43,737 nt of DNA from Candidatus Eiseniibacteriota bacterium (GTDB lineage: Bacteria > Eisenbacteria > RBG-16-71-46 > CAIMUX01 > WJJG01): positions 1 to 43,737 of the forward strand of contig JAZDGX010000129.1 in NCBI GenBank assembly GCA_043806645.1, given 5' to 3'. How positions within the stretch are numbered: the first letter of the stretch is position 1; each line of letters begins with the position of its first letter. A model generated the notes under the pieces. That model was not told the origin of the DNA. It did not search any database and worked only from the letters and a program-made list of their open reading frames with translations. A program made the translations under genes and the position numbers. Positions 3 through 26,839 of this stretch are shown here, in pieces.

Positions 3-878
3 GAAGCCGAGCCCCCCGACCAGCCCCGCAAAACCGTCCGAGACGATGTCGCCGAACATGTTGCCGGCCACGATCACTCCGTAGTCCTCGGGGTTCTTCG
101 TCAGCCACATCATCTGAGCATCGATGTTGGTGTCCCAGACGGCGATGTCGGGGTAGTTCTTCTGCACCGTGCGTCCCATCTCGAGCATCATCCCCGAGGT
201 CTCGCGGATGACGTTGGGCTTCTCGCAGACGGTGACCGACTTGTATCCGAAGTCGCGCGCATGGCGGAAGGCCGCCTCGACGATCCGGCGGCATGCATTG
301 CGCGTGAAGATGCGGCAGGAAACGGCGAGATCCTCGGGCGGGACCTTCAGGTAGGGTTTGAACTGGGGATGGGTCGCGAGCGCCGCCCGCACCTGCTCGG
401 GTGGGTTGGTCCACTCGACTCCCGAGTACAACCCCTCGGTATTCTGCCGGTAGATGACTACATCCACCTTCGGCTCTTCGATCGCCCCGGCCCGGCCGCG
501 CCGGATGAAGTTGAGCGGGTTGCCGGGAAAGGACTGGCATGGGCGGATGCAGATATCCAGTCCGAAATACTGGCGCATCCCGACGATCGGGCTGCGATAG
601 GTATGGCCCCGGCCCTGGAGATCGGGATGCAGCTCCTTGGCCGCCGCGCCCTTGGGCTTGGAGGTGATCGCCCCGAAAAGACCGACGCGATGCTCTTCGA
701 GCAGCTTCAGCGTGCGCTCGGGAAGCGCATTGCCCTCGCTGCACCAGAATTCCCAGCCGATGTCGCCGTGCACGTAGTTCGCCTGGAACCCCGCCTTCTC
801 CAGCACGCGCAGCGCCTCCGGAAGCACCACCTTGCCGATCCCGTCTCCGGGCATGCTCACAATGGTCGTCTTGCTCAT
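3..878 (-). CDS. Isocitrate/isopropylmalate dehydrogenase family protein (3' end outside window)
   Basis: Not in ORF track; hand translation from ATG at 878 gives MSKTTIVSMPGDGIGKVVLPEAL...FGAITSKP, later NMFGDIVSDGFAGLVGGLG. AGGAG SD upstream; downstream of sucCD. Confidence 0.88.
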   Translation of the reverse strand, partial: MSKTTIVSMPGDGIGKVVLPEALRVLEKAGFQANYVHGDIGWEFWCSEGNALPERTLKLLEEHRVGLFGAITSKPKGAAAKELHPDLQGRGHTYRSPIVGMRQYFGLDICIRPCQSFPGNPLNFIRRGRAGAIEEPKVDVVIYRQNTEGLYSGVEWTNPPEQVRAALATHPQFKPYLKVPPEDLAVSCRIFTRNACRRIVEAAFRHARDFGYKSVTVCEKPNVIRETSGMMLEMGRTVQKNYPDIAVWDTNIDAQMMWLTKNPEDYGVIVAGNMFGDIVSDGFAGLVGGLGF

Positions 879-977
879 CGCCTGATCTCTCCTTCTGCTG
901 TCCGGAACCCCGTATTCAAGCCCCCACGGCGCATCGCCGTACCTCGATGCAGGCCGCACTCCCGCGGCGCAGCGGCC

Positions 978-1865
978 TCAGCGCAGGCCGCGCTCCCGCA
1001 GTGCCTGCTCCATCGCCAAGCCCATTCCGGCCGGGCTCTCCACCACCGTGACTCCCGCCGCCTCGAGGGCGGCGACCTTCTCGGCAGCCGTACCCTTCCC
1101 GCCGGCGATGATCGCCCCGGCATGTCCCATCCGTTTTCCGGGCGGGGCATTCTTGCCCGCGATATAGGCGACCACCGGCTTGTCGAACCCATTCTTGATC
1201 CAGGCGGCCGCCGTCTCTTCGGCCGTGCCGCCGATCTCGCCGATCATCAGCACGCCCTTCGTTTCGGGATCGCGCGCGTAGAGCGGCAGCAGATCGACGA
1301 AGTTCATCCCCACGACGGGGTCCCCGCCGATGCCGATGCAGGTCGACTGCCCGAGTCCCCGCTCGCTGCATTGGCGCACGCCCTCATAGGTCAGCGTGCC
1401 CGATCGCGAGATGATCCCTACCGGACCGGGCTGGTGGATGTAGCCGGGCATGATCCCGATCTTGCATTTCTCCGGCGAGATGATCCCCGGGCAGTTCGGC
1501 CCGATCAGGGTCGTGCCCCGGAACCGCGCCCGCAGCTCGGACTTGACGCGGACCATGTCGAGAGCGGGAATGCCCTCGGTGATCGCGACGATCACCCGCG
1601 CCCCCGCCTCGGCCGCCTCGAGAATCGCCTCCGCGGCCGCGGAAGCGGGAACGAAGACGACGGCGGCATTGAAATCGGTATCCCGGGCGGCCGCGGCCGC
1701 AGTGTCGAAGATGGGAATGCCGTTGTAGGTGGTGCCGCCCTTGCCGGGCCGCGTACCCGCCACGACCCGCGTGCCGTACTCGACCATGAGATCCGTGTAG
1801 AATTGCCCGACGCGTCCGAGGCCCTGGACGAGTAGGCGGGTGCCGCGATCGACCAGGATGCTCAT
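978..1865 (-). CDS. sucD: Succinyl-CoA synthetase alpha subunit
   Basis: [22 protein letters not shown] and the phospho-His motif RMGHAGA; 4-nt overlap with the sucC stop. Confidence 0.97.
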
Positions 1866-3034
1866 GCGCCCCTCCCTTGGGCCGCGGCCACGGCTTTCTC
1901 GGCGGCCGCGAGAAAACTCTCCGCCTCGATCAGGGCCAGCCCGCTCTCGCGCAGCATCCTCCGGCCGGCCTCCACATTCGTCCCCTCCAGGCGCACGATC
2001 AGCGGCACCTTGAGGTCAAGTTCGCGGAGGGCCTCGAGGATGCCGCTGGCGATCACATCGCAGCGCACGATGCCGCCGAAGATGTTGACCAGCACGGCGC
2101 GCACCCGCTCATCCGCGAGCACGAGCCGGAAGGCAGCAGTGACGCGCGAGGGATCCGCCGCACCCCCGACGTCGAGGAAGTTGGCCGGGGCCCCGCCGGC
2201 CAGGGTGATGATGTCGTTGGTCGCCATCGCCAGCCCGGCGCCGTTGACCATGCAGCCGATGTTCCCCGAGAGCGAGACGTAGGAAAAGCCGCAATCCGCC
2301 GCCTGCGCCTCGCGCGGATCCTCTTCGTCGCGATCGCGCAGCGCGCACAGCGATTCGTGACGGAAGAGGGCGTTGTCGTCGAGATTGCATTTGGCATCGA
2401 GCGCGATCACGCGCTGCGCGGCGGTAACGACCAGGGGATTGATCTCGATCAACGAACAATCCTGCTCGACATAGATGCGGGCGAGTGTCGTGAGGATCTC
2501 CGCAGCCTGGCCGGCCGCCGAGTGCCCGAGCTCGAGGCCCTGCACCAAGCGCCCGGCGGCCCCGCCGTCCAACCCCCGGCGCGGATCGAAATGCTCCTTG
2601 AGCAACGCCTCCGGCCGCTCGCGCGCGACTTCCTCGATCTCGACCCCGCCTTCGCGCGACGCCATGACCACCGGCCGCTCCGCGGCCCGATCGAGCACGA
2701 TGCCCACGTAGAGCTGTTGCTCGAACGGGCAGCCTTCCTCGATCAGCACCTTGCTCACGCGCACGCCGCCCGGCCCCGTCTGAGGCGTGATCAGAGGCCG
2801 CGACAGAATCTCTCCGGCCACCCGGCGGACCTCGGCCGGCGAATGCGCCAACCTGACGCCGCCCCCCTTCCCGCGCCCCCCGGCATGGACCTGCGCCTTG
2901 ACCGCGCACAACCCCCCGCCCAGTTCGACGGCGGCGCGCTCCGCCTCTTCCGCGCTCAGGGCCAGGATGCCTCGCGGGACGGCTATGCCATGGGCGTGCA
3001 GGAGATCCTTGGCCTGGTACTCATGGATTTTCAT
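1862..3034 (-). CDS. sucC: Succinyl-CoA synthetase beta subunit
   Basis: MKIHEYQAK start at 3034; [46 protein letters not shown]. Confidence 0.97.
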
Positions 3035-3302
3035 GGCGCAGATCCCTTCCTGGAGGTCCGGCACCGCCGACCGGGAGACCGCAGCGGGCGCGAAACCGGA
3101 AAGTCTATCAGGTGGGCAGAATATGGACAAGGCGAGGCTTGCTGGTCCGGCGTCCGTGTCGACTCTCGCTCGTCGGGCACAGGTGCGGTAAACGGACCGG
3201 CCTTCGACCGGGTGAGCCGGGCCTCCACGGGCCGAACTTGGTGCCCCTCAGCCAATAAGCCCGAGTTACCAGGCCATCGAGCGCCCGGACGGCCTGATAC
3301 CC

Positions 3303-3332
3303 TTGACACCGCTTTGCGCCGGGGAGCAGACT
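3303..3332 (+). promoter_or_regulatory. Candidate sigma70 promoter for the giant lipoprotein gene
   Basis: Perfect TTGACA at 3303-3308; weak -10 (CAGACT) 18 nt downstream; lies in the divergent intergenic region. Confidence 0.35.
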
Positions 3333-3572
3333 TGTTGTAGACGCCTCAACAGGGATTGTTTGGGATCACGGGTTCCGGAGAGGAGCCTCCTCGCGACGAC
3401 GGAAAGGGTCGTGTCATGAGCCGTCCAAAGGCTGATCCGCCCTCTCGAGGAACCGGCAAGATCGTTGCCCGTGAAGGGCTTGGGCCCGACGCACGGTTCT
3501 CAGTCTAGTTTCCGCAGCCGCCCCAGTTGCCACAAACGTGCGACTGCGGGCATGCAAACGGAGGATCCCAGA

Positions 3573-6500
3573 ATGACCCGCCCGCAACGGCTCCTCACGG
3601 TTCTGGTCGGAGTCGCGGTCGCTCTGAGCCTAACGACTTGCAGCGACGACGATTCGTCGTCCAACCCCACCTGCCACCTGATGGTCGTCTCCCCCAACGG
3701 GGGGGAGGTCCTTTCGGCCGGGCAGGCCTACTCCATCCAGTGGATGAGCGATGGCCCCTGTTCCGGCACCGTCGACATCGAGCTGATGAAGGATGGCGAG
3801 GTGCGCACGACAATCGCCGAGAACGCGCCCAATACCGGCTCGTACACCTGGCAATGCCAGGGCGGCGAGGGGGACGCGGGCTACTACCTCCGTCTCACCT
3901 TGAACGACGGCTCCAGCCGCAAGACCGACATGAGCGATGCGGGCTTCCGTATCTCGGCCGCCCCCGCTTCCTGCGCCATTACCGTCGCCGCCCCCATTGC
4001 CGGGGCGCGCTTCGTCCAGGGGCAGATCGTGCCCATCGCCTGGGAGGCCGGCGGGACCTGCGACGGCGCGGTCCGCATCGAGCTGCTGCACCTGGGCGCC
4101 TCCTGCACGGTCATCGCGGAGAGCACCGAGAACGACGGCGCCTTCGACTGGACCGCGGCGCGTTGCGTCACCGACTCGACCGGCTACGCCGTGCGCGTCA
4201 CGGACGTGGAGAGCGGCGCGACCGACTTCAGTTCCGGGACCTTTACCATCGGCAACGGCGAGGCGGGAACCTGCACGCTTCAGTTGACGCGGCCCAACGG
4301 CGGCGAGTCCTGGATCGAGGGCGCGCGCGTGCAGATCGAATGGGATCATGCGGGATCGGCCGGCCCCACGGTGTCTCTCGAACTGCTGCGCGACGGAGAG
4401 GTTTGCGCGGTGATCGCGGCGGCCACGGACAACGACGGCTCCTTCGAATGGACCGCCGCCCGCTGTGCGACGGCCTCCGCCGGGTACCATGTGCGCATCG
4501 CGGATCCCGCCTGCGGCGCCCGGGACCTGAGCGATGCCTCTTTCGCGATCCTGCCCGCCAGCCAGAATGAATGTCACCTCACCGTCACCCGGCCGTATGC
4601 CGGCGAGCAACTCGTCTCCGGTGAGACCTTCACCATTCTCTGGAATACCACGGAGGCCTGCGGCGACCAGGTGCGCATCGAGCTTTATCGCCTGGGCGCC
4701 CTGTGCCAAATCATCAGCGAGACGACCGCGAACGACGGCGCTTACGAGTGGGTCGTCGACGGGTGCGGCTCGGCCGACTGCGGCTACACGGTCCGCGTGA
4801 TCGATCTCGACAGCGGGTCCGCGGACGACAGCGATGGTCACGGCATCCAGACCGTCTGCGAGCTCGAGGTCCTCAGTCCCAACGGCGGCGAATCCTACTA
4901 CGTCGGGGAGCAGGTGCTGATCGCCTGGCAGGCGTCCGATTGCGCGTCGCAAGTGCGCATCGACTTGCTCCAGGACGGCCAGGTCTGCCGGACCCTGGTC
5001 ACGCACACCGCCAACGACGGCATGTTTGTCTGGACGCGGGCCGCGCAGTGCGACGGCCCGGACGGATACGTCATCCGCATCACCGACTTGGAGACGGGCA
5101 CCCTCGACGAGAGCGATGCCCCCTTCCGCATCATCACGCCCTGCAGCCTGCGGATCACTGCGCCTTCCGGAGGCAACACCTGGACCGTGGACGACATCCT
5201 CTCCATTGAATGGGTGCTCGCCGGCGACGCGTGCGGCGATCTCGCGCTCATCGAGCTGCTGCGCGGCGACGAAGTCTGCATGGTGATCACTCCGGAAACG
5301 CTCAACGACGGCCAGTTCGACTGGGCCGTCGCGCAGTGTCTCGACTTCACCAACGGCTACGTCATCCGCGTGACCGACATCACGAGCGGCGCCTCCGACG
5401 AAACCGACGGGATGCTCGATATCTTCTACTTCCCGCCCGAAACATGCGAGATCGCGCTGCTCGCCCCGACTGCCGGAGCAGAGCTGTGCGCGGGCCGGCC
5501 GATCGACATTCGGTGGTCATTCAACGATTTCTGCGGCTCGCAGGTGATGATCGAGCTGTTGCAGGGCGCGACGGTCTGCGCGACCGTGGCCCCCACGACC
5601 GCTAACGACGGCGTCTTCTCCTGGACGCCCGCGCCGTGCGGCGACCAGACGGAAGGATATCGCTTGCGCATCACCGATCTGGGCACGGAGATCGTCGCGG
5701 AGAGCGCAGCCGATTTCGCCATTCTGCCGGGCTGCGCCCTCAGCCTGCAGGCGCCTTCCGGCGGTTCCTTCTGCGCCGGAACGAGCGTGCCGATCGAGTG
5801 GACCGCGACCCCTTGCTGCGGCGATCAGGTTCGCCTGGAACTCCTCCTGGACGGCGTGGTCTGCAGCACGATCGCCGCCGCCACGGACAACGACGGCAGC
5901 CATCCGTGGACCGCCGAACCCTGCGGGGAGGCCGACGGCGGCTATGCCATCCGCGTGACCGACCTGGACACGGGGGCGACGGCCGCCAGCGCGGTCGAGT
6001 TCGACATTCAACAGGCCTGCGCCATCGCGGTCACCTCCCCGACCGGCGTGGAGATCCTGTGCGCGGGGGCCGATGAGCTCCCCATCAGCTGGACGACCGT
6101 GGACTGCTGCGGCGCGACGGCCAAGATCGAGCTGCTTCTGAACGGCACTGTCTGCGCGGTGATCGCGGCCACGACGGAAAACGACGGCAGCTTCCCCTGG
6201 CCGGTCGAGCAGTGCGCTGCGGCGACCGACGGCTACACCATCCGGGTGACCGATCTCGTCAGCGGCGCCTCCGGCGAGAACCCGCTCGCCTTCGCCATCG
6301 AAGCGCCCTGCCGGATCGACCTCACCGTTCCCAACGGCGGCCAGGATCTGTGCACCGGCGATCCGCTGGAGATTCTCTGGTCGAGTTCATCCTGCTGCGG
6401 CGCCACGGTCAAGATCGAGCTCGTCCATGACGGCGGCGTCTGCGAGACCATCGCCGCCGCGGCCGACAACAATGGTTCGCTCACCTGGATCCCGGTCCAG

Positions 6501-9500
6501 TGCGCCGGAGAGGCGGATGGGTATCGCATCCGCGTGACCGATCTCACGACGGGCGCGGCCGACGAAAGCGCTCTCGATTTCTCCATCCATCCCGCCTGCG
6601 AGATCACGCTGCTCGAGCCCGACGGCGACGAGCCGCTGTGCGCGGGCACGCCGATCGACATCCTGTGGACCCCCTCGACCTGCTGCGGTGACCAGGTCTC
6701 GATCGAGCTCGTCCATGGCGGCACGGCCTGCCTGACGATCGCCGCCGCCACGGCAAACGATGGCCGCCATGAATGGATGCCCGAGCCCTGCGCGGGCGTG
6801 ACGGGCGACTATCGCATCCGCGTGACCGATTTGGTGACGGGAGCCACCGACGAGAGCGACGCGCTCTTCGACATCGAACCCGGCTGCCAGCTCACGGTCA
6901 CCGCGCCCCCGGCCGGGCTGGTCGTGTGCGAGGGCACGCCGATCGACATCCGCTGGACGCCGACGACCTGCTGCGGCGAGCTGGTGAAGATCCAGCTGAT
7001 CTGCAACGGGGTCATGCGCTCGACCATCGCGGCGGAAACCGCCAACGACGGCGCGTTCACCTGGAACGCCGACCAGGCGGGCAACGACTCGAGCGGCTAC
7101 ACGATCCGCGTCACCGACCTCGAGAGCGACGTCGCGGGCGAAAGCCCCTTCTCGTTCACCATCCACGCCGGCTGCGCCGTCGAGCTCTTCTCGCCGCGCA
7201 ACGGAGACCTTTTCTGCATCGGCGACCCGGTGGCGATCGTCTGGGATCCCGGCTCGCCCTGCTGCGGCGACCTGGTGCGCATCCAGCTCTATCGCTACGG
7301 AAATCTGGTGAGCACGCTCGCCGCCTCTACCGAGAACGACGGCGCCTACACCTGGCCGAGCGCCCAGCAGCACAATGGCCTGCCGCACGGCTACGCCATC
7401 ATGGTCACCAACCTGGCGACCGGCGCGGCCAACGGCATCGATTGGGCCTTCTCGATCGGCGGCGGGGATGTGAGCGTCTCCTACCCCAACGGCGGCGAGA
7501 CGATCTGCAGCGGTCTGCCGGTGACGATGCGCTGGAATCGCTCCAGCTGTTATGGACCGACGGTCAAGATCGAGCTGCTGCACGACGGGACGGTCTGCCG
7601 CACGCTCGCGGCCTCGACGGGCAACGGCGGCACCTTCCACTGGATCGCCGAGCAGTGCGGCTCCTTCGAGGAAGGCTACACGGTGCGCATCACCGATCTC
7701 GAAAGCGGTTCGGTCGATGTGAGCGACGGACCCTTCGTCATCCATCCGCCATGCGACCTCTCGATCAGCCGTCCCCAGGCGGGGGACATCTACTGCGTGG
7801 GAGATCCGGTGCTCATCCGTTGGGATGCCTCGCCTTGCTGCGGCGACGACATCCGCCTCGACCTCGTCCGCAACGGTTCGCCCTGTCTGTTGATCGCCGA
7901 ACTCGACGGCGGGCCGTCGCGCAGCTATGAGTACATCTGGACCGCCGCGCAATGCGCCGGCCAGTCCGCGGGCTACAAGGTCCGGGTGACCGATCTCGAC
8001 AGCGGGCTGTACGCCGAGACCGGCGGCACCTTCACCATCAACCCCGCGTGCGTGATCACGATCACGAGCCCCAACAACGGGGAGGTTCTCACCGCCGGCG
8101 AGAGCGCGCCGATCGCTTGGGACTTCGGCTACTGCTGCGGCGAAACGGCATCGATCGAGTTGCTGCTGGACGGTGTCGTTTGTCTCGTCATCACCGCCGC
8201 GACGCCCAACGACGGCAGCTTCCCCTGGATCGCCGAGCAGTGCGGAGCGGCCATCGAGGGCTACGAGATCCGCGTGACCGACCTCGAGACGGGCGCCTGG
8301 GACTTGACCGACGTCGGCTTCCGCATCGAACCGGCCTGTGAAGTGCTGGTCACGGCGCCGGCCTCCGGCGAGTACTGCCCGGACGACCCGGTGGGGATCG
8401 TCTGGACGGCGGAGGGTTGCGGAGCAGACGTCAAGATCGAGCTGCTGTTGGACGATGCGGTCTGCGCGACGATCGCGGCCGCGACGGCCAACGACGGGGC
8501 CCATGCCTGGCCGGCGGCGGCGTGCGGCGAGGCGACCGGGCCCTACCGCGTCCGCGTGACCGACCTGGAGACGGGGATCGCGGCCGAGAGCCCCGCCGGC
8601 TTCGTCATCCATACTCCCTGCGACGTGCGGGTCGTGTGGCCCAGCAGGGCGGAGCTGCTCTGCACGGGCCGCGAATACCAGTTGCTCTGGAACGCCTCGC
8701 CCTGCTGCGGCGAGTTCGTGAGGCTCGACCTGTACCGCTTGGGCGAGCCCTGCGTCGAAATCGCCGCTTCCACTGCCAACGACGGCGCCCATCCCTGGAC
8801 CGCAGCCATGTGCGCACCCGAGCCTTGGGAAGACATCGAGCCTTGGGGCGCGACCGGCGGCTACCAGCTGCGGGTGACCGATCTCACGACGGGCGCCTAT
8901 GACGAGAGCAACATCGCGTTCAAGGTCCTGCCCACCTGCGAGGTCACCGTGCTGGGACCCAACGGCGGCGAGGTATTCACCGTCGGCGAGTCGATTCCCA
9001 TCGTCTGGGAATCCTCGGAGTGCCATGAGCACGGCTACTGCTGCGGGGAGCTGGCCAAGATCGAGCTGTTGCGCGCGGGCAGCGTGTGCGCCGTGCTGGC
9101 CGAATCCACACCCAACGACGGCTCCTTCGCGTGGCCCGCCGCTCAATGCGACGGCCAAAGCAACTCCTACATGGTCCGGGTCACCGATCTGGAGACCGGC
9201 GCCACCGACAGAAGCAACCGCTCCTTCGACATCGTCACCCCCTGCCTGCCCGTGGTCCTGTCGCCCAACGGCGGCGAATCTCTGTGCGTGGGCGAGAACG
9301 TCACGCTCGACTGGGAGACCAGCGGCGACTGTTCCGGTAACGTTCGTCTCGACCTGGTCCGTGACGGAAGCCCCTGCCGGCTGATCGCGGCCACGACCGC
9401 CGACGACGGCTCGCACACTTGGAGGGCGGCCATGTGCAGCGCGGAAACCGAGGGCTACCGCCTGCGGGTCACGGATCTCGGCAGCGGCGACTACGATGAG

Positions 9501-10736
9501 AGCGATGCGACCTTCGCGATCCAGCCCCGCTGCGCTATCGGGGTGCAGGAACCGACCAATGGAGCTTCCTACCGCGACAACGACGAGATCACGATCTCCT
9601 GGACCCGCTCGGCCTGCTGCGGCGAGATCGTGCGGATCGATTTGGCCTTCGACGGCACGCTGTGCGAGGTGATCGACAAGACCACACCCAACGACGGATC
9701 CTACAGTTGGACGGTCCACCCGTGCGGGACGCAGCGTGGTCTCTATCAGATCCGCGTGACCGATCCGGCCAGCGGAGCCTTCGGCGACAGCTACGGCGGC
9801 TTCGACATCCTCCCCGCCTGTGCGCTGGAGATGACGGCCCCGGCCGGCGGTGAAAACTACTGCACCGGCGTGAGCGTCCCGATCCGCTGGACGGCGGATC
9901 CCGGCTGCGGTGGATCGGTGCGGATCGAACTGCTCGCGGGCGGTTTGTATTGCGCGACGATCAGTGAAGCGACCACCAACGACGGAGCCTTCGACTGGCC
10001 GGCCGCGCCCTGCGGCGCAGATCCCGGCAGTCTCGCGATCCGGGTGACGGACATCGAGACGGGAGTCAGCGCGGTCTCGAGCGGCGCCTTCGCCGTCGGT
10101 CCCGCCTGCCTGCTCGCAGTGCACGATCCCGAACATGCCGGCGGCGCAGAGGGACTCTCCTTCTGCCAGGGCGAACCGGTTCTCATCACCTGGGACTCGT
10201 CCGCCTGCTGCGGCAGTAGCTCCATGGCGATCGACCTGGTTCTCGCGGGCGGCGTCTGCCATCCGATCACCGACGACACTCCCAATGACGGCAGCTACAC
10301 CTGGACCGCATGGCGGTGCGGCGACGTCGAAGACGGATACCGCATTCGCGTAACGGATCTCGGCACCGGCACCAGTGCGACAAACGACACCGACTTCAGC
10401 ATTCGGCCTCCCTGCGCTCTGGATGTCTCCTACCCCGACGGCGGTGAAAGCATCGTCAACGGCAGTTGGATCGCGATCACCTGGGACACCACGGCCTGCT
10501 GCGGCGATCACGTCGAGCTGGAGCTGCTGCGCGACGGGGAATCCTGCGGCCAGATTGAAGCTTCGACCGATAACGACGGGACCCATGCGTGGCTGGCCGC
10601 GCAGTGCGACAGCCACGAGACAGGGTATCAAGTACGTATCATCGATCTCTCGACGTCGAACTCCAATGTGAGTGACGCGACGTTCGCGATCAGTGCAACG
10701 GGGCCGCGGACGACCGGGACCCAGGCCTCCCGTTGA
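3573..10736 (+). CDS. Giant surface lipoprotein (~2387 aa) with 24 tandem Cys-rich Ig-like repeats (Kre9/Knh1-N-like, 'PNGGE...NDG.F.W' type)
   Basis: GGAGGA SD before ATG 3573; basic N-terminus, hydrophobic helix and lipobox-like LTT-C (Cys23, 3639-3641); 24 repeats of ~96 aa with consensus C..V.sPnGGe....G....I.W....(C)CG..V.IeLl..G..C..Ia..T.NDG.f.W....C......Y.iRVTDl.tG..d.S...F.I. Confidence 0.88.
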   Translation: MTRPQRLLTVLVGVAVALSLTTCSDDDSSSNPTCHLMVVSPNGGEVLSAGQAYSIQWMSDGPCSGTVDIELMKDGEVRTTIAENAPNTGSYTWQCQGGEGDAGYYLRLTLNDGSSRKTDMSDAGFRISAAPASCAITVAAPIAGARFVQGQIVPIAWEAGGTCDGAVRIELLHLGASCTVIAESTENDGAFDWTAARCVTDSTGYAVRVTDVESGATDFSSGTFTIGNGEAGTCTLQLTRPNGGESWIEGARVQIEWDHAGSAGPTVSLELLRDGEVCAVIAAATDNDGSFEWTAARCATASAGYHVRIADPACGARDLSDASFAILPASQNECHLTVTRPYAGEQLVSGETFTILWNTTEACGDQVRIELYRLGALCQIISETTANDGAYEWVVDGCGSADCGYTVRVIDLDSGSADDSDGHGIQTVCELEVLSPNGGESYYVGEQVLIAWQASDCASQVRIDLLQDGQVCRTLVTHTANDGMFVWTRAAQCDGPDGYVIRITDLETGTLDESDAPFRIITPCSLRITAPSGGNTWTVDDILSIEWVLAGDACGDLALIELLRGDEVCMVITPETLNDGQFDWAVAQCLDFTNGYVIRVTDITSGASDETDGMLDIFYFPPETCEIALLAPTAGAELCAGRPIDIRWSFNDFCGSQVMIELLQGATVCATVAPTTANDGVFSWTPAPCGDQTEGYRLRITDLGTEIVAESAADFAILPGCALSLQAPSGGSFCAGTSVPIEWTATPCCGDQVRLELLLDGVVCSTIAAATDNDGSHPWTAEPCGEADGGYAIRVTDLDTGATAASAVEFDIQQACAIAVTSPTGVEILCAGADELPISWTTVDCCGATAKIELLLNGTVCAVIAATTENDGSFPWPVEQCAAATDGYTIRVTDLVSGASGENPLAFAIEAPCRIDLTVPNGGQDLCTGDPLEILWSSSSCCGATVKIELVHDGGVCETIAAAADNNGSLTWIPVQCAGEADGYRIRVTDLTTGAADESALDFSIHPACEITLLEPDGDEPLCAGTPIDILWTPSTCCGDQVSIELVHGGTACLTIAAATANDGRHEWMPEPCAGVTGDYRIRVTDLVTGATDESDALFDIEPGCQLTVTAPPAGLVVCEGTPIDIRWTPTTCCGELVKIQLICNGVMRSTIAAETANDGAFTWNADQAGNDSSGYTIRVTDLESDVAGESPFSFTIHAGCAVELFSPRNGDLFCIGDPVAIVWDPGSPCCGDLVRIQLYRYGNLVSTLAASTENDGAYTWPSAQQHNGLPHGYAIMVTNLATGAANGIDWAFSIGGGDVSVSYPNGGETICSGLPVTMRWNRSSCYGPTVKIELLHDGTVCRTLAASTGNGGTFHWIAEQCGSFEEGYTVRITDLESGSVDVSDGPFVIHPPCDLSISRPQAGDIYCVGDPVLIRWDASPCCGDDIRLDLVRNGSPCLLIAELDGGPSRSYEYIWTAAQCAGQSAGYKVRVTDLDSGLYAETGGTFTINPACVITITSPNNGEVLTAGESAPIAWDFGYCCGETASIELLLDGVVCLVITAATPNDGSFPWIAEQCGAAIEGYEIRVTDLETGAWDLTDVGFRIEPACEVLVTAPASGEYCPDDPVGIVWTAEGCGADVKIELLLDDAVCATIAAATANDGAHAWPAAACGEATGPYRVRVTDLETGIAAESPAGFVIHTPCDVRVVWPSRAELLCTGREYQLLWNASPCCGEFVRLDLYRLGEPCVEIAASTANDGAHPWTAAMCAPEPWEDIEPWGATGGYQLRVTDLTTGAYDESNIAFKVLPTCEVTVLGPNGGEVFTVGESIPIVWESSECHEHGYCCGELAKIELLRAGSVCAVLAESTPNDGSFAWPAAQCDGQSNSYMVRVTDLETGATDRSNRSFDIVTPCLPVVLSPNGGESLCVGENVTLDWETSGDCSGNVRLDLVRDGSPCRLIAATTADDGSHTWRAAMCSAETEGYRLRVTDLGSGDYDESDATFAIQPRCAIGVQEPTNGASYRDNDEITISWTRSACCGEIVRIDLAFDGTLCEVIDKTTPNDGSYSWTVHPCGTQRGLYQIRVTDPASGAFGDSYGGFDILPACALEMTAPAGGENYCTGVSVPIRWTADPGCGGSVRIELLAGGLYCATISEATTNDGAFDWPAAPCGADPGSLAIRVTDIETGVSAVSSGAFAVGPACLLAVHDPEHAGGAEGLSFCQGEPVLITWDSSACCGSSSMAIDLVLAGGVCHPITDDTPNDGSYTWTAWRCGDVEDGYRIRVTDLGTGTSATNDTDFSIRPPCALDVSYPDGGESIVNGSWIAITWDTTACCGDHVELELLRDGESCGQIEASTDNDGTHAWLAAQCDSHETGYQVRIIDLSTSNSNVSDATFAISATGPRTTGTQASR

Positions 10737-10880: not shown

Positions 10881-10943
10881 TGCGGCAAGACCGCTTCCGG
10901 GGCACGTCGCCCGAGGCCACCATCATCGAAGGAGTTGCCGCGG

Positions 10944-13112
10944 ATGATGTTCGTTGATCGGATCCGGCGACGCGATCGGATCGTCTTGCCTCTGGCGAGG
11001 TTCCTCCTGGCGTCGCTTTTCTCGTTCGGTGCCTGCGCGCTCTCTCCGGCCGCGGCGGCGCCGTACTGGGTCTTCTTCCGCGACCGCGGCCCCGCTCCGG
11101 CGCCGACCCTCGAGATCGCGCGGGCCCTGCCCCAGGAGGTCTGGGCCAGGCGCGCCAGGGCCGCGGGGGAATCCTCGGTGCTTCCCAACCGGCACGATCT
11201 TCCCCCCTGGCAGCCCTATGTCGATCAGGTGGCGCGGTTCGGGAGACTGCGGCATTGCAGCCGCTGGCTGAACGCGGTCAGCGCGGATCTGGACGACGAT
11301 CCGGACCTCCTCGCCGCGCTGCGGGCGCTGCCCTGCGTGCGGGAGATCCGTCCCGTGGCGGTCGCCCGCCCGGCCTCCTTGGGCCCCGACGTCGACGCGG
11401 CGGGACTGCCCCTCGAGGTCGTCCTCGATCCCCGCCGCGAACTCCGGCGCGCCGCGGCCGAGGTGCAATACGGCGCCCTCCCTTACGGCCAGTCCCAGGG
11501 ACAGCTCGAGGAAATCGGCATCCCGCCCCTACACCTCCTGGGGTACTCGGGCAACCGCGTGCGGCTCATGATGATCGACACCGGATTCCGCAAGGATCAT
11601 CAGGCCTTTCTCTCGTCCGATCTGTTGAACGAGTGGGACTTCGTCTTCGAGGACGGCAACGTGCAGAACGAGCCGGGCGATCTCGAGTTCCAGCACAGCC
11701 ACGGCACCGCCACCTGGGCCTCCGCTGCGGGATACGCCCCGGGGATTCTGATCGGACCCGCCTACGGCGCTTCGTTCCTGCTCGCCAAGACCGAGGACAT
11801 CGGCGTTGAGGTGCGCGCGGAAGAGGACAACTATGTCGCCGCCCTGGAATGGGCCGACCTGCAGGGAGCGGCCGTCACGAGCGCCAGCCTGAGCTACCTC
11901 TGCTTCGACGACGACTTCTGCTATGAGCTTGCCGACAAGAACGGCGACACCGCGGTCATCTCGATCGCCATCGACATCGCCGCTTCCCGCGGCATCCTGT
12001 GCATCAATTCCCAGGGCAACTATGGATGCGCCCTCGGCAGTCTGGGCACGCCCGCCGACGCGGACAGCGTCATCGCGGTGGGGGCCGTCGATAGCGTCAA
12101 CCAGATCGCCACCTTCTCGGCCTGCGGACCCACATTCGACAATCGTCTGAAACCGGAGGTCGTCGCGCGGGGGGTGCGCACGCGCACTGCTTCGGCGATC
12201 GAGGTGGACACCTACGGCTACGGCAGCGGCACTTCCTTCTCGGCCCCCTTGGTTGCCGGAGCGGCGGCCGTGCTCCTGGAGGCGCACCCCGAATGGAGCC
12301 CCATGGAGCTGCGCGCGGCGCTCATGGCGACCGCCGATCGAGCAACCCTGCCGGATTCCCAGTATGGCTGGGGCAGGATCGACGCCGCCCTGGCGCTCGA
12401 ACATGCGCCGGTGCTCTATCCCCGCCCCTTCTCGCTCTGCGCGCCCGCCGACAGCGAGATCACCGCCCTCTACACACCCTCCTTCGCCTGGCGCGAAAGC
12501 ACCGACCCCGACCAGGGCGATCCGCTGCTGTATCATCTGTGGATCGAGGATCTCGCCGATCCGCAAGTGCAATGGAGCGCGGCGACCGGTGACTCCAGCC
12601 TGACGCTGCCGTTCGCCCTGCCTCCCGATCGCGCCTACCGTTGGTGGGTGACCGCCGACGACTTGGAGGGACACCGTCGCTTTTCGCGGGAGGAACGCGT
12701 GCTCTTCGTGCAGCCGGATCCTTCTTCCGTCGATGGGGGGAGCGGCAGCGGGGAAGGCGGGCGGGCCGAATCGGGCTCAGGCCGTTTCGGGATGAAGCTG
12801 GCCTGTGCGCCCAATCCTTTCCGCGCCGTGCTGCACTTCCGCGTGGCCGTCCCGCCCTCTGCCATGTCTGCGAGCAATGTCCGCGAGGCCGGCCCTGTCC
12901 CCGAGTGGCATATCTACGACCCCCTGGGCCGCTCCATCGCCGGCGGATCGGCCGTACACGACAACGAGGGCTTCGGTGCTCACTGGGACGGTCGAACCGA
13001 CGCGGGCGTCCCGGTTCGCCCCGGCGTCTACTACTTGGAGGTCCGCCTCGCCCACCGCGTCTTCAGGGAGACCATCGTTCGTCTGCCCGATGATTCGTCC
13101 GGCGGCCGATGA
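10944..13112 (+). CDS. Secreted subtilisin-like S8 serine protease with FN3-like and C-terminal FlgD-Ig/T9SS-CTD-like domain
   Basis: Signal peptide; triad motifs MIDTG, HSHGT, SGTSFSAPLVAG; C-terminal PNPF...IYDPLGR...WDGRTDAG.PV.PGVYY; AAGGAG SD 9 nt before ATG 10944. Confidence 0.92.
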   Translation: MMFVDRIRRRDRIVLPLARFLLASLFSFGACALSPAAAAPYWVFFRDRGPAPAPTLEIARALPQEVWARRARAAGESSVLPNRHDLPPWQPYVDQVARFGRLRHCSRWLNAVSADLDDDPDLLAALRALPCVREIRPVAVARPASLGPDVDAAGLPLEVVLDPRRELRRAAAEVQYGALPYGQSQGQLEEIGIPPLHLLGYSGNRVRLMMIDTGFRKDHQAFLSSDLLNEWDFVFEDGNVQNEPGDLEFQHSHGTATWASAAGYAPGILIGPAYGASFLLAKTEDIGVEVRAEEDNYVAALEWADLQGAAVTSASLSYLCFDDDFCYELADKNGDTAVISIAIDIAASRGILCINSQGNYGCALGSLGTPADADSVIAVGAVDSVNQIATFSACGPTFDNRLKPEVVARGVRTRTASAIEVDTYGYGSGTSFSAPLVAGAAAVLLEAHPEWSPMELRAALMATADRATLPDSQYGWGRIDAALALEHAPVLYPRPFSLCAPADSEITALYTPSFAWRESTDPDQGDPLLYHLWIEDLADPQVQWSAATGDSSLTLPFALPPDRAYRWWVTADDLEGHRRFSREERVLFVQPDPSSVDGGSGSGEGGRAESGSGRFGMKLACAPNPFRAVLHFRVAVPPSAMSASNVREAGPVPEWHIYDPLGRSIAGGSAVHDNEGFGAHWDGRTDAGVPVRPGVYYLEVRLAHRVFRETIVRLPDDSSGGR

Positions 13113-16057: not shown

Positions 16058-16401
16058 TCGCTTCCTTTCCCGGGGTGCCGTCGCCCCGCAACACTACCCT
16101 TCCGGGACAGCGCCCGCCGCCTGGGCTGCAGCGCCTGCATCCGCCGCGCCACCCCGCAGCCGCGACAACCGGATCGCACCACCGCCGGCCCGGACGTCAG
16201 GGTACTCCAGAAGCCCCGGCATGGCTCGCCCGAAATGCGCCCGGGATGCGCGTGGCGCAACGAGTCGGGCGACCGGGACTTGCCTCGCGTAACTCAAGGG
16301 CCGGCCGATCATTACGGAGGATCGACGGAACCCCGCCGCCTCAACGCGGTATGGACTCGGGGAGACCGTCCGCCTATGATCGGCGCATGCGGAGAACGAA
16401 C

Positions 16402-17991
16402 ATGAATAGAGCCGGTGGAGCGATCCGCCTCCCACACCAGTGGGCAACGATCGGCATGGTCCCCCTGGCGGCGCTGATGCTCCTCTCCGGCGTGCACTGC
16501 GTCGGGCGCGAGCGGGCCCCGCGCCCGAACATCCTGTGGATCCTGTGGGACACCGTGCGCGCCGATCACCTTAGCCTCTACGGCTATGAGCGGTCCACGA
16601 CCCCCTTCCTCGACACGTGGGCGCACGATGCGCGGGTCTACGACGATTGCCTCTCAGCGGCCAATTACACCGTTCCCTCTCACGCCTCATTCTTCACCGG
16701 TCTGCTCACCTCGCAGCATGGCGCGAGCAACGACCACCTCTACCTCGACGAGGATCTGACCACGATCGCCGAACTCCTCAGCGGGGCCGGCTACCAGACC
16801 TTCCTCTACTCCGCCAACCCCAATATCTCGGCCGAAGAGAACTTCGACCAGGGCTTTCTCACCGTCGAGCATCCCTGGAGCGAGAAGCACCTGCGCTCCG
16901 CGATGGAGATTCTGCGCGACAAGGTCCAGCCCGAAGATCATTCAAGCGGGCTGCCGGAGAAGATCCGCCAGGGGCGCGTCGGCAAGTGGGACATCAAGGC
17001 GAGCGGGCAGCTGGCCGAGCAAGCCCTGCGCGATTGGCTGCGCCTGCGCCGTCCCGCCCAGCCGTACTTCGCCTTCTTGAACTACATGGAAGCCCATCGT
17101 CCCTACATACCTCCCCGGGAGTACCGCGCGCGGCTGATGACTCCGTCCCAGGTCGCCCTTTCCTATCAGATCGACCGTTCCTGGGCCTCGCAATGGAGCT
17201 ACACCTTCGGGAGGGCCGACTACAGCGACGAGGAGATCGCCGTCACCGCGGCGACCTACGACGCCGCTCTCGCCGAACTCGACGATCTGCTGCGCAGCCT
17301 GCTGACCTCGCTCGAGGCCGACGGACAACTGGAGAACACGATCGTCGTCGTGACCAGCGACCATGGCGAACATCTGGGCGATCATCACATGCTCGGACAC
17401 CAGCACTCCCTCTACAACGCGCTGATCCACGTCCCGCTCGTGATCCGCTACCCGCAGCGGATCGCTCCGGGCCGGGAGCCGGGGCCGGTCATGAACTACG
17501 ACCTCTTCCCCACCCTGCTCGAGCTGGCCGGCGTCGAGCCTCCGGATGCCGGGGGCGGAGCGGTCAGCCTGCTCGCCCCCCTGGCGGAGCGCCGCAGAAT
17601 CAGCGAAGGCCTGGGCGTCTTCCGCGATCCCTTCGCGGCGGTCCAGCAGATGCATCCCGACTGGGATCCGCGGCCGTGGGATCGGGAGCTGCGAGCGTTG
17701 ATCGAGGGCCGGGACAAGTTCATCTGGTCATCGAACGGCGGCCACGAGCTCTATGACTATCGCGATGACCCGCGCGAGGAGCGCGATCGAGCGGCGGGTG
17801 AGACCGATGTGGTGGCACGGTTGGCCCAGACCCTCGACGGCGCCATCGCCGCTCTCGAGCGCCGCGCCCCCGCCGATGCGGCTCCCGAAATGCCGCCCGC
17901 GCACCGCGAGCGCCTGCGCTCGCTCGGCTACATCGACGTTTCCGCAAAACCAGACACGGGCGCGGGCAAACAGACTTCGGGCGGGGAATAG
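16402..17991 (+). CDS. Exported sulfatase-fold hydrolase/transferase
   Basis: PNILWILWDTVRADH, YTVPSHASFFTG, NYMEAH, TSDHGE, C-terminal LRSLGY; start placed at ATG 16402 after GGAGA. Confidence 0.85.
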   Translation: MNRAGGAIRLPHQWATIGMVPLAALMLLSGVHCVGRERAPRPNILWILWDTVRADHLSLYGYERSTTPFLDTWAHDARVYDDCLSAANYTVPSHASFFTGLLTSQHGASNDHLYLDEDLTTIAELLSGAGYQTFLYSANPNISAEENFDQGFLTVEHPWSEKHLRSAMEILRDKVQPEDHSSGLPEKIRQGRVGKWDIKASGQLAEQALRDWLRLRRPAQPYFAFLNYMEAHRPYIPPREYRARLMTPSQVALSYQIDRSWASQWSYTFGRADYSDEEIAVTAATYDAALAELDDLLRSLLTSLEADGQLENTIVVVTSDHGEHLGDHHMLGHQHSLYNALIHVPLVIRYPQRIAPGREPGPVMNYDLFPTLLELAGVEPPDAGGGAVSLLAPLAERRRISEGLGVFRDPFAAVQQMHPDWDPRPWDRELRALIEGRDKFIWSSNGGHELYDYRDDPREERDRAAGETDVVARLAQTLDGAIAALERRAPADAAPEMPPAHRERLRSLGYIDVSAKPDTGAGKQTSGGE

Positions 17992-17996
17992 AGAGC

Positions 17997-19547
17997 ATGA
18001 CGAAAAAGAGGCAAACGCAGGCCGGCGCGGAGGGCCGCCATTGCGGCGGCCCTCCCCCGACGGGAGCATCGGGTAGCGGGACTCACTCCTCAGCCGGCCG
18101 CCCCGGCGCACGACGGAGACTCTGGCGTTCGTGGTGGGCCATTCCCGCGGCCTTCCTGCTGCTCATCCTCGTCGTCCTCGCGTTGCGCCCCTGGAATCGC
18201 GGGACCGCACCCGCCCCGCCGGGCGGCCCGGCGCTCGGCGCGCTGCCGCTCGGCGCGCTGCCGCCCGGCACACCGATTCTCTTCATCACGATCGACACGC
18301 TGCGTGAAGATCATCTGAGCCGCAGCGGCTACCCGCGCGAGACCACGCCCTTCCTCGACCGCCTGGCCGGGGAGGGCATCTACTTCGCGCGCTGCTTTTC
18401 GCAGTGTTCCTGGACCTTGCCGTCGATGTTGACCCTGATTTCTTCGCTTTCTCCGCCGGTCTTCGGCATCCGCGACGGGATCGCCCCGATTCCGCGCGAA
18501 GGGGAGGAAACCCAGCCCGAGAATCCCCACATGCAGATGGAGATCTTCGCCCAGGCGCATGTCACGCTGGCCGAAGCGTTGCGCGCGCACGGCTACCGTA
18601 CGATCGGGGTTTCGACCAACGGACACCTGATCGAGCGCCAGGGATTCACCCAGGGATTCGATTCGTTCAATGAAACCGACTGCATGTGGGGCAAGGCCGA
18701 CTGTGCGCTGGCGCGCGCGCTCGAGGTCGTCGACGCCCAGCCTCTCGACTCGCTTTTCCTGTGGGTCCATCTCTTCGATCCCCACTTCGATCAATACGGC
18801 CGCCCACCGGTCTACCTGCCGGCCCCGGGCTACGAGACGCTGTTCGGCAAGGTCGACGCGCGCGATCAGGCGGCCTCCGTCATCGCCGACTATGACCGCA
18901 AGATTCGTTACACCGACGATCAACTGCGCGCCTTTTGCGGCGCGCTCGAGCAACGGGGCCTGCTCGACCGCTTTCTGATCGTCATCGCCGCGGACCATGG
19001 AGAGGAATTCAACGAGAAGGGACGGTGGGGACATTCGAAGTCTCTCACCAACACGCTGATCCATGTGCCATTGATCGTGCGCTTGCCGGAGAAGCAGGCG
19101 GGAGGACGGGTGGTCGCGGATGTCGTGCGCAATCTCGATGTAATGCCGACGATCCTCGATCTCGTGGGCGCTCCCATTCCCTCGGGCGTCGAGGGCGTGA
19201 GCCTGCGTCCCGCCCTCGAGGGCCGGAGCCTGCCCCCGCTGACGGTCTACGCGGAGACCAGGCGTACGGGTCTCTTCATGATCGCCCTCATCGATCCCGC
19301 GCTGGATCGCAAGGTCGTCATGGACTTCCGCACGCAGTCGCTCGAGCTGTACGCGTTCACGGAAGATGTGCGCGAAGGCACGAACCTGGCGGGCGGCCGG
19401 GCGCAAGAGGCGCGGCAACTGGCCGAACGCCTGAAGGGCTTCGCCCAGGAAATGGAGCAGCGCGCGATCATCGAAACGGCCCCGGGAACCCTCTCGGAGG
19501 AGGAGCGCGAGCGGCTGCGCAGCCTCGGATACCTGGGGGGCGGCTGA
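17997..19547 (+). CDS. Membrane-anchored sulfatase-fold hydrolase/transferase
   Basis: N-terminal TM helix; ITIDTLREDH, WTLPSM, HLFDPH, ADHGEEF...WGH, C-terminal LRSLGY. Confidence 0.85.
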   Translation: MTKKRQTQAGAEGRHCGGPPPTGASGSGTHSSAGRPGARRRLWRSWWAIPAAFLLLILVVLALRPWNRGTAPAPPGGPALGALPLGALPPGTPILFITIDTLREDHLSRSGYPRETTPFLDRLAGEGIYFARCFSQCSWTLPSMLTLISSLSPPVFGIRDGIAPIPREGEETQPENPHMQMEIFAQAHVTLAEALRAHGYRTIGVSTNGHLIERQGFTQGFDSFNETDCMWGKADCALARALEVVDAQPLDSLFLWVHLFDPHFDQYGRPPVYLPAPGYETLFGKVDARDQAASVIADYDRKIRYTDDQLRAFCGALEQRGLLDRFLIVIAADHGEEFNEKGRWGHSKSLTNTLIHVPLIVRLPEKQAGGRVVADVVRNLDVMPTILDLVGAPIPSGVEGVSLRPALEGRSLPPLTVYAETRRTGLFMIALIDPALDRKVVMDFRTQSLELYAFTEDVREGTNLAGGRAQEARQLAERLKGFAQEMEQRAIIETAPGTLSEEERERLRSLGYLGGG

Positions 19548-23306: not shown

Positions 23307-23489
23307 GCGGCGCGCGAGAGACCGGCTCCGCCCGAGCGGCGCGAGGGGTCCGGGTTGAAGCGCCCCGCGCGCGGACCCCAGGTGGCCCTTGACTGAGGCG
23401 CCGCCTGCGCCGCACCATCCGCACGTCCTGACCGCCGGGCAATGGGCGGCCGGCCGGGCCGACCGCTTTCGAATACCATCGAGGTCACC

Positions 23490-25039: not shown

Positions 25040-26839
<1,800 letters not shown>

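Follow-up and report, generated by a model that had tools for sequence, protein, structure and literature searches.

The window, a stretch of 43,737 nt covering positions 1 to 43,737 of contig JAZDGX010000129.1 from a Candidatus Eiseniibacteriota assembly (2.96 Mb in 258 contigs, 87% complete), harbors on its forward strand a gene for a giant repeat protein, most likely a lipoprotein, in which the cysteines of consecutive repeats vary together (Table 1). The stop-free open reading frame (ORF) spans 3465..10736, and in the public annotation the gene (P0002; 2387 aa, sole member of its cluster) begins with the ATG at 3573, which a GGAGGA precedes by 8-9 nt. Against Pfam, the protein matches Kre9_KNH (PF10342) over 10 stretches with an E-value of 4e-126 and 412.6 bits (cut-off 24.6), with Big_7 as a secondary match (E 3.8e-74), and the genome search with PF10342 returned 13 matches within this gene, 10 of them above the gathering cut-off. 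We delimited 24 repeats of 94-106 residues by hand, corresponding to residues 70-2412 of the long frame, aligned them with MAFFT, and made from the aligned repeats a 96-column hidden Markov model (HMM), on whose columns all cysteines are numbered below. An earlier reading of the stretch made without database searches (the sequence-only reading) had placed the array at 3672-10695; its start stands, and its end is corrected to 10700, leaving an 11-residue tail after repeat 24 and no head domain. Since the other repeats are only 38-54% identical to repeat 8, the array is presumably old, and an assembly artefact is improbable. The nearest homologues, at 58-61% identity, are labelled Candidatus Eisenbacteria.

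Table 1. Features of the giant repeat lipoprotein gene and of a downstream thiol-oxidation gene in the window. A stapled junction is one with a cysteine at column 15 of repeat n and at column 29 of repeat n+1.
Feature	Position	Strand	Basis
Giant repeat lipoprotein gene, 2387 aa plus stop	3573..10736	+	Open frame, ATG, database protein P0002
Putative signal peptide ending in lipobox-like L-T-T-C (Cys23 of P0002)	3573..3641	+	Sequence; cysteine position in homologues
Acidic stretch S-D-D-D-S-S-S-N-P-T right after the predicted lipid-attachment cysteine	3642..3671	+	Likeness to CS(D/E)2
Repeats 1-6, without column-15 or column-29 cysteines, junctions unstapled	3672..5444	+	Repeat alignment
Repeats 7-16, nine successive stapled junctions, column 15(n)/column 29(n+1)	5445..8336	+	Repeat alignment
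Repeats 17-19, both junctions stapled; in repeat 19 the B-C loop carries a C-H-E-H-G-Y insert	8337..9242	+	Repeat alignment
Repeats 20-21, one stapled junction	9243..9818	+	Repeat alignment
Repeats 22-24, two stapled junctions; repeat 24 without column-15 cysteine	9819..10700	+	Repeat alignment
C-terminal tail GPRTTGTQASR, no additional domain	10701..10733	+	Repeat alignment
VKOR fused to two thioredoxin/DsbA-like domains, 656 aa	21336..23306	+	VKOR E 3.2e-8 (aa 13-130), Thioredoxin_4 E 1.7e-23, DSBA E 2.6e-22

The repeats have four conserved cysteine columns, namely, 1 (the repeat start), 30, 45 and 65, and two optional ones, column 15 (cysteine A, after a GGE turn) and column 29 (cysteine B, the first of a CC doublet). 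Cysteine A occurs in 14 repeats (7-15, 17, 18, 20, 22 and 23) and cysteine B in 14 as well (8-16, 18, 19, 21, 23 and 24). The sequence-only reading had claimed that the post-GGE cysteine of repeat n predicts the first doublet cysteine of repeat n+1 and not that of the same repeat, and the MAFFT alignment reproduces both this rule and the distribution of A, including its absence from repeat 24. A(n) equals B(n+1) at 23/23 junctions, as against 16/22, 16/23, 16/24, 15/22 and 15/21 matches at shifts of -2, -1, 0, +2 and +3, respectively. If the repeats were exchangeable, the exact probability of such a match would be 1/817,190, and one hit was obtained in 200,000 shuffles; the repeats are not exchangeable, so that the real test is replication in homologues. 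The distance from column 15 of one repeat to column 29 of the next is 110 residues, more than the repeat period of 96 residues, and thus duplication of one repeat alone cannot yield the pattern.

Some repeats depart from the canonical set of cysteines. Repeat 14 has lost the cysteines at columns 1 and 30 together and has kept that at column 29 (SSCYG), just as had been read from the sequence; the column-45/column-65 pair, which had been described as missing from repeat 13, is indeed gone there, and is gone from repeat 12 too. Repeat 1 (3672-3971) lacks the column-45 cysteine and has one near column 62 without that partner. Repeat 3 is without column 30 and has an extra cysteine near column 80, within the F-G loop, which may replace it as the partner of column 1, and repeat 4 has an additional one at column 70 (repeats 3 and 4: 4272-4856); another additional cysteine lies at column 40 of repeat 12 (6885-7172). 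In repeat 19 (8937-9242), a six-residue insert brings an extra cysteine and histidines before the CC doublet (ECHEHGYCC), making the cysteine count odd; it has counterparts in the orthologues P0004 (CQAHGICC) and P0005 (CQDHGTCC), and may be a metal site or offer an alternative cysteine partner. Altogether the mature protein contains 120 cysteines. All 14 stapled junctions have linkers of 2-3 residues, and repeats 1, 2, 3 and 6 have linkers of 6-7 residues rich in Pro, Ala, Ser, Gly and Glu.

Homologues were obtained from a word-indexed search with repeats 7-14 and from an exhaustive search using the repeat alignment as profile, in which 22,778 proteins match at E<=1e-3 and of which the best 150 were used; the 221 other proteins from both searches were cut into repeats with the HMM. 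We considered as informative the 44 homologues, excluding the giant lipoprotein itself, that have at least one cysteine A or extra loop cysteine and at least two column-1 cysteines. In these proteins, column 15(n) and column 29(n+1) are concordant at 430 of 444 junctions (253 with both cysteines, 177 with neither, 8 with A only and 6 with B only), compared with 384/488 at shift 0, 342/444 at shift -1 and 314/400 at shift +2. At the junctions where the two models disagree (own pattern left out), the next-repeat model is right 57 times and the same-repeat model 12 times by column 29, or 60 and 9 times when extra loop cysteines are counted. The coupling analysis across adjacent repeats that had been suggested as a check gives the same result: when all pairs of cysteine-bearing columns are scanned, within a repeat and across the junction (739 junctions in 69 Cys-type homologues), column 15(n)-column 29(n+1) is the top pair with a phi of 0.961, followed by column 70-column 92 (0.903; an optional cysteine pair found in some relatives), column 1-column 30 (0.870) and column 45-column 65 (0.761). 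It is still the top pair, at 0.939, among representatives of at most 50% identity (358 junctions). A misplaced repeat boundary, by which the pair would really lie within one domain, is ruled out by the 110-residue separation together with the coupling of columns 1 and 30 within the repeat as delimited.

We also constructed a FastTree phylogeny of 762 junction units after taking out the cysteine columns, and drew from it independent pairs that differ in A(n). Nine such pairs are well supported, and in these B(n+1) on average changes the same way in 8.2, the opposite way in 0.0 and not at all in 0.8 (means over 200 pairings; median p 0.008); the same-repeat control gives 5.7, 1.1 and 2.1 (p 0.125). 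Parsimony places 50 changes of A and 52 changes of B on the tree. As the tree is weakly resolved, the test backs the next-repeat rule in a supportive rather than a decisive manner.

With the giant lipoprotein counted in, 40 of the 222 proteins that match the repeat profile have stapled junctions, and these 40 show 25 different patterns of A, including runs of 13 junctions, blocks, and strict alternation. The last arrangement (A.A.A../.B.B.B., i.e., repeats stapled in twos) is seen in P0046, P0047, P0057, P0058 and P0193, all but the last of which also contain a Peptidase_C25 (gingipain-family) domain according to precomputed Pfam matches. Over the first 19 repeats, the orthologues P0004 and P0005 share the block pattern of the giant lipoprotein, which suggests selection on the pattern itself; P0003 is off by one repeat and has a cysteine cap at its end. 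In paralogues, by precomputed Pfam matches, the same arrays are joined to beta-helix/NosD, Pmp-repeat or peptidase-C25 domains, so the array probably acts as a stalk. All six staple-bearing homologues that come with an organism name are from Candidatus Eisenbacteria.

Structure models place these columns on the fold. AlphaFold2 (AF2), given as input alignment the 23 adjacent repeat pairs of the giant lipoprotein itself, models repeats 8-9 with a predicted local distance difference test score (pLDDT) of 96.7 and a predicted template modelling score (pTM) of 0.82, and repeats 16-17 with a pLDDT of 96.6; both models are all-beta, each repeat consisting of about nine strand segments (in repeats 8-9: 3-7, strand A; 12-14, A'; 18-25, B; 32-39, 42-52, 56-60, 71-77, 83-85 and 90-93). 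The repeat as modelled is an immunoglobulin (Ig)-like beta-sandwich, and Foldseek matches it to tandem FN3/Ig modules, among them those of CbhA (3pdd, E 1.6e-9), NCAM and the Aureispira grappling-hook protein GhpA. By fold, no PDB template for the junction was found with Foldseek, the two-domain model reaching a template modelling score of 0.44 or less against generic tandem Ig/FN3 structures; by sequence, no close PDB relative was found either, the best match, a weak one, being to the B-repeat region of Cna (1d2p, E 1.5e-4), in which no individual stretch passes the threshold; we do not class the protein with the CnaB-like adhesins on this basis. In the model of repeats 8-9, Cys14 closes strand A' right ahead of the turn to strand B, and the CC doublet sits in the B-C loop. 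As column 1 covaries with column 30, the B-C loop should lie at the N-terminal pole where the chain enters the domain, and as strands A and A' lead off in the opposite direction, column 15 should lie at the exit pole, beside the 2-3-residue linker. Columns 15(n) and 29(n+1) are thus predicted to sit on abutting poles of neighbouring domains, a statement about topology, not about distance.

Further information comes from array ends and from junctions that break the rule. In eight proteins the last repeat has cysteine A, and in seven of them (2-3 lineages) a short tail begins with a cysteine at the position of column 1 of the absent next repeat (column 1'). At the other end, in all nine proteins whose first repeat has cysteine B (2-3 lineages), a cysteine lies five residues upstream of column 1, where it ends the preceding non-repeat domain; P0008, P0020, P0024, P0025, P0034, P0037, P0041, P0042 and P0100 have such an N-terminal domain of about 320 residues, which ends in C-x-[FY]-x-x-C. 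The first cysteine of this motif is apparently the partner of column 29 of the first repeat, in which case a staple can tie the array to another type of domain. A junction with A and without B is common to P0028, P0036, P0039 and P0032, and in P0028, P0036 and P0032 it has a linker cysteine 2-4 residues ahead of column 1' (dCsvC, aCgC and sCeC). The genome of the giant lipoprotein itself contains two single-repeat lipoprotein-like ORFs, one on the - strand of contig C190 (436-aa open frame) and one on the + strand of contig C93 (339-aa open frame), each with a hydrophobic N-terminus leading to GLLGCSE or LVSGCSE, an unrelated N-terminal part and one copy of the repeat with a column-15 cysteine plus a C-terminal D-C-G tail. 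Tail, linker and upstream cysteines thus seem usually to compensate orphan cysteines locally.

Counted junction by junction, the cluster formed by A(n-1), column 1 and the loop cysteines holds an even number of cysteines at 718 of 762 junctions; intradomain pairing alone would leave an unpaired cysteine at both ends of every block. The four-cysteine cluster with a CC doublet is found at 245 junctions and column 1-column 30 alone at 353. Another 15 junctions, from about six lineages or positions by our own grouping, have lost column 1 and retain A(n-1) with a single loop cysteine, which reads C-x-G, and hence is column 29, in 12 of the 15. To judge from these variants, one small region contains the linker together with columns 15(n), 1' and 29'.

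The N-terminus of P0002 reads MTRPQRLLTVLVGVAVALSLTTC, followed by SDDDSSSNPT, with a charged n-region, a hydrophobic core and a cysteine. The threonine at position -1 does not conform to the classical [AGS] rule for the lipobox. A cysteine ends the hydrophobic stretch in most of 30 homologue N-termini as well (LATC, VTTC, LANC, FLSC, LLSC), being missing in three peptidase-fused homologues and in one without a signal peptide in the examined stretch; matches to PF01790 (E 9.2e-54) and PF01252 (E 7.4e-36) show that the genome encodes Lgt and LspA. The identification as a giant lipoprotein, made at first from the letters alone, is supported by these results, and export with lipid modification at Cys23 is the most likely fate of the protein. 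The C-S-D-D-D after the anchor cysteine fits the CS(D/E)2 motif, which PMC6222051 defines as the lipoprotein export signal of Bacteroides SusG, and acidic residues following the cysteine recur among the homologues, so that surface display is plausible. The VKOR-DsbA fusion gene lies 10.6 kb downstream of the giant gene (Table 1), and its presence in the window means that a capacity for oxidative folding is available; its product is predicted to be a disulfide-forming enzyme complete in itself.

Our preferred explanation, to which we assign a probability of about 0.7, is that the protein is a lipid-anchored, oxidatively folded fibre of 24 domains with two intradomain disulfides per canonical repeat and additional bonds between column 15(n) and column 29(n+1) at 14 of the 23 junctions. 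In this explanation, the Ig-like (Kre9_KNH) domains would be folded with oxidation outside the cytoplasm and probably be exposed on the surface. The first intradomain disulfide would join column 1, at the start of strand A, to column 30 in the B-C loop, and the second column 45 to column 65; the third would link column 15(n), at the end of A' and the chain-exit pole, to column 29(n+1), in the B-C loop at the chain-entry pole, giving up to 60 disulfides, i.e., two per canonical domain plus the 14 across junctions. A stapled run would then contain a continuous covalent path consisting of a disulfide, the 14-residue segment from column 15 to column 29, and the next disulfide, which bypasses most of each sandwich. 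From connectivity alone, strand B and the disulfides would carry the tension, and stapled domains should be unable to unfold under load. We infer that blocks 7-16, 17-19, 20-21 and 22-24 would be rigid, separated by hinges, and would withstand bending, extension, unfolding and protease attack better than repeats 1-6, which form an unstapled base. A more far-reaching proposal, for which we would give somewhat less than even odds, is that the serial interdomain disulfides are the load path, making stapled blocks practically inextensible and protease-proof, that evolution sets stiffness block by block by gaining or losing cysteine pairs at individual junctions, and that the system is a redox-switchable counterpart, in a diderm candidate phylum, of the isopeptide-locked pili of Gram-positive bacteria, with a cross-link topology undescribed for bacterial surface proteins. 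If so, the 10-repeat rods of this protein, the stapled pairs of the peptidase-C25 fusions and the single-domain caps would be examples of tuned stiffness.

Several observations weigh against this explanation. Fourteen of the 444 homologue junctions violate the rule by column 29; several of these misfits are register artefacts in which a lone loop cysteine is aligned to column 29 (P0045, P0108), and true orphan cysteines persist in P0032 and P0043. About four cysteines of the giant lipoprotein itself (in repeats 1, 4, 12 and 19) have no obvious partner, so not every cysteine need be bonded. The proposed bonds are not consecutive in sequence, and would require folding-driven oxidation or an isomerase. 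The unstapled pair 16-17 is modelled with a pTM of 0.76, only slightly lower than the value for the stapled pair 8-9, a single comparison from a shallow 23-row alignment. As to the hinges, the three distal unstapled junctions (16/17, 19/20 and 21/22) share 3-residue linkers with the stapled ones, and the hinges proposed there are accordingly less certain. Lastly, the terminal caps show that column 15 is able to reach a cysteine at column 1', so that covariation does not fix its partner within the cluster of columns 15, 1', 29' and 30'. Of the bonding scheme as first put forward in the sequence-only reading, two disulfides within each domain and a link to the next, the existence of both kinds of bond is favoured by the covariation in the 44 homologues, the top coupling, the independent pairs and the compensating cysteines, and the covariation is compatible with column 29, 30 or 1 as the exact partner.

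This last point leads to the alternative that survives best, though we consider it unlikely, in which column 15(n) bonds to column 1(n+1) and caps the linker, with the CC doublet of repeat n+1 forming a vicinal disulfide, or column 29 having another role, so that the junction would be braced much less. Where no next repeat exists, a lone cysteine does lie exactly at column 1' (in the seven of eight terminal repeats and the two single-repeat ORFs described above), and the linker cysteines just ahead of column 1' in P0028, P0036 and P0032 could stand in for it. However, this pairing needs a strained vicinal disulfide at 245 junctions and a rewiring of the ancestral column 1-column 30 pair, which stands alone at 353, and the 15 junctions that keep columns 15 and 29 after the joint loss of columns 1 and 30 bear the signature of the loss of one pair.

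An arrangement that we regard as improbable is a Cys4 metal site (Zn, Fe or Cu) made of column 15(n) and columns 1, 29 and 30 of repeat n+1, which would glue the domains together in place of two disulfides. The 245 four-cysteine clusters with a CC doublet have the required composition, and the conserved Cys/His-rich insert of repeat 19 lies beside the doublet. On the other hand, it is a pair and not a quartet that is gained and lost, since column 1-column 30 stands alone at the 353 junctions and column 15 with column 29 alone at the 15; column 15 is accompanied only by a tail cysteine in the seven terminal repeats and the two single-repeat proteins; and the protein is predicted to be exported, with the gene of a VKOR-DsbA oxidase in the window.

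Bonds between molecules have an even smaller chance of being correct. Here, column 15(n) would be joined to column 29(n+1) of a neighbouring molecule staggered by one repeat, giving bundles or a sheet, and the covariation from n to n+1 would look identical; disulfide-linked fibres of separate subunits are indeed described for Bacillus endospore appendages in a preprint (bioRxiv 10.1101/2020.08.21.260141). Yet the compensating cysteines of linkers, tails and single-repeat proteins are of a local, intramolecular kind, both columns are predicted at the abutting poles of consecutive domains connected by 2-3 residues, and a fixed one-repeat stagger between molecules that share N-terminal lipid anchoring has no support. 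Least probable of all is that no bond exists, the cysteines being free or irrelevant and the pattern reflecting shared ancestry or multi-repeat duplication, for although kinship among repeats and homologues makes the raw counts overstate independence, and the poorly resolved junction tree offers only nine well-supported independent pairs, the two columns cannot share one 96-residue duplication unit, the 25 architectures differ in their block boundaries, the independent-pairs test prefers the next repeat to the same one, and the rule is perfect in the giant lipoprotein in spite of the low identity of its repeats.

With regard to known systems, long bacterial surface fibres of Ig-like repeats, which have to remain extended and withstand force and proteases, are braced by Ca2+ at the linkers, by cooperative interfaces, or by intradomain isopeptide or ester bonds. 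The isopeptide and ester bonds of Gram-positive pilins and adhesins (CnaA/CnaB, Spy0128, Cpe0147) resist force and proteases; they form autocatalytically between Lys and Asn/Asp or between Thr and Gln inside one domain, whereas the chemistry proposed here is Cys-Cys and needs an oxidase, and its distinctive bond would cross a domain boundary. Region II of MpIBP and SiiE are long arrays of Ig-like repeats of about 100 residues whose junctions are stiffened by Ca2+ so as to project from the cell. That stiffening, exerted at the linkers, can be undone by chelation and is the same all along the array, whereas that of the giant lipoprotein would be covalent, redox-sensitive and block-patterned. Within the Kre9/KNH-like (PF10342) family, repeat proteins likewise form tandem head-to-tail arrays with short linkers, including cysteine-free giants with type IX secretion system (T9SS) sorting domains; the conserved cysteine columns are almost all empty in distant relatives (P0048 onward), and closer relatives (e.g., P0007, P0013, P0016 and P0017) have one or two intradomain pairs only.

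Covalent cross-links in tandem Ig-like domains of surface fibres are mentioned in general terms in PMC12617251. Disulfides between consecutive Ig domains also have a eukaryotic precedent: in siglecs (MAG, CD33), according to PMC5150538, an Ig1-Ig2 disulfide without a flexible linker helps explain the limited interdomain flexibility. The siglecs differ from the giant lipoprotein in having one such junction per protein, other cysteine positions and other Ig sets, and the bonds are not serial over up to 13 junctions. In the Bacillus endospore appendages (Ena), named 'disulfide-linked pili' in the preprint cited above, consecutive units are joined by disulfides, but there each unit is a subunit of its own in a Gram-positive spore fibre and not a domain of one polypeptide, and fold and assembly are unrelated. 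The export signal CS(D/E)2, as given in PMC6222051, belongs to surface lipoproteins of Bacteroidota, and the host of the giant lipoprotein is not a member of that group. Thus, the domain family, a very common one, and the covalent or Ca2+ bracing of tandem Ig-like proteins are already known, and we could not find serial disulfides between consecutive domains of one bacterial chain, as in the proposed surface fibre, described in the limited literature searched; the interdomain disulfide of HdaB that appears there is an engineered artefact and not a natural precedent. The same literature yielded papers on antibody engineering for interdomain disulfides, and no crystal-structure work on disulfides in Kre9 Ig-like domains. 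The part of the Eisenbacteria literature that we examined consists of ecological or genomic surveys and contains nothing about this family of giant repeat proteins.

If the proposed bonds exist, covalent linkage of consecutive domains, serial and block-patterned, would be a further design principle for fibres exposed to force and proteases, and reduction should alter their stiffness and extensibility junction by junction. A stapled two-repeat unit might then be usable as a rigid, genetically encoded rod module. The array is also a natural example of covariation across a repeat boundary, which is useful for reading tandem-repeat proteins since standard coupling analysis collapses repeats onto one another, and the pattern could offer a first starting point for assigning functions to the giant 'hypothetical proteins' that abound in Candidatus Eisenbacteria.

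Concerning the rest of the window, a subtilase gene (Peptidase_S8, E 1.2e-38) at 10935-13112 (+) begins 198 nt after the stop codon of the giant gene on the same strand, and the last approximately 80 residues of its product resemble, and may form, a T9SS/FlgD-type C-terminal sorting domain. Upstream, at 3-3130 on the opposite strand and divergent from the giant gene, are genes for an isocitrate/isopropylmalate dehydrogenase and for the alpha and beta subunits of succinyl-CoA synthetase; the long forward-strand ORFs at 261-1835 and 1877-3340, which match no Pfam family, probably only shadow these opposite-strand genes. Farther downstream are two adjoining sulfatase genes (PF00884) at 16075-17991 and 17997-19547 (+; E 1.8e-49 and 3.9e-39). 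Beyond the VKOR-DsbA fusion gene, two adjoining genes at 23442-24983 and 25040-26839 (+) encode class-I aminoacyl-tRNA synthetases of the Glu/Gln type with different anticodon-binding domains, which are probably glutamyl-tRNA synthetase (GluRS) and glutaminyl-tRNA synthetase (GlnRS).

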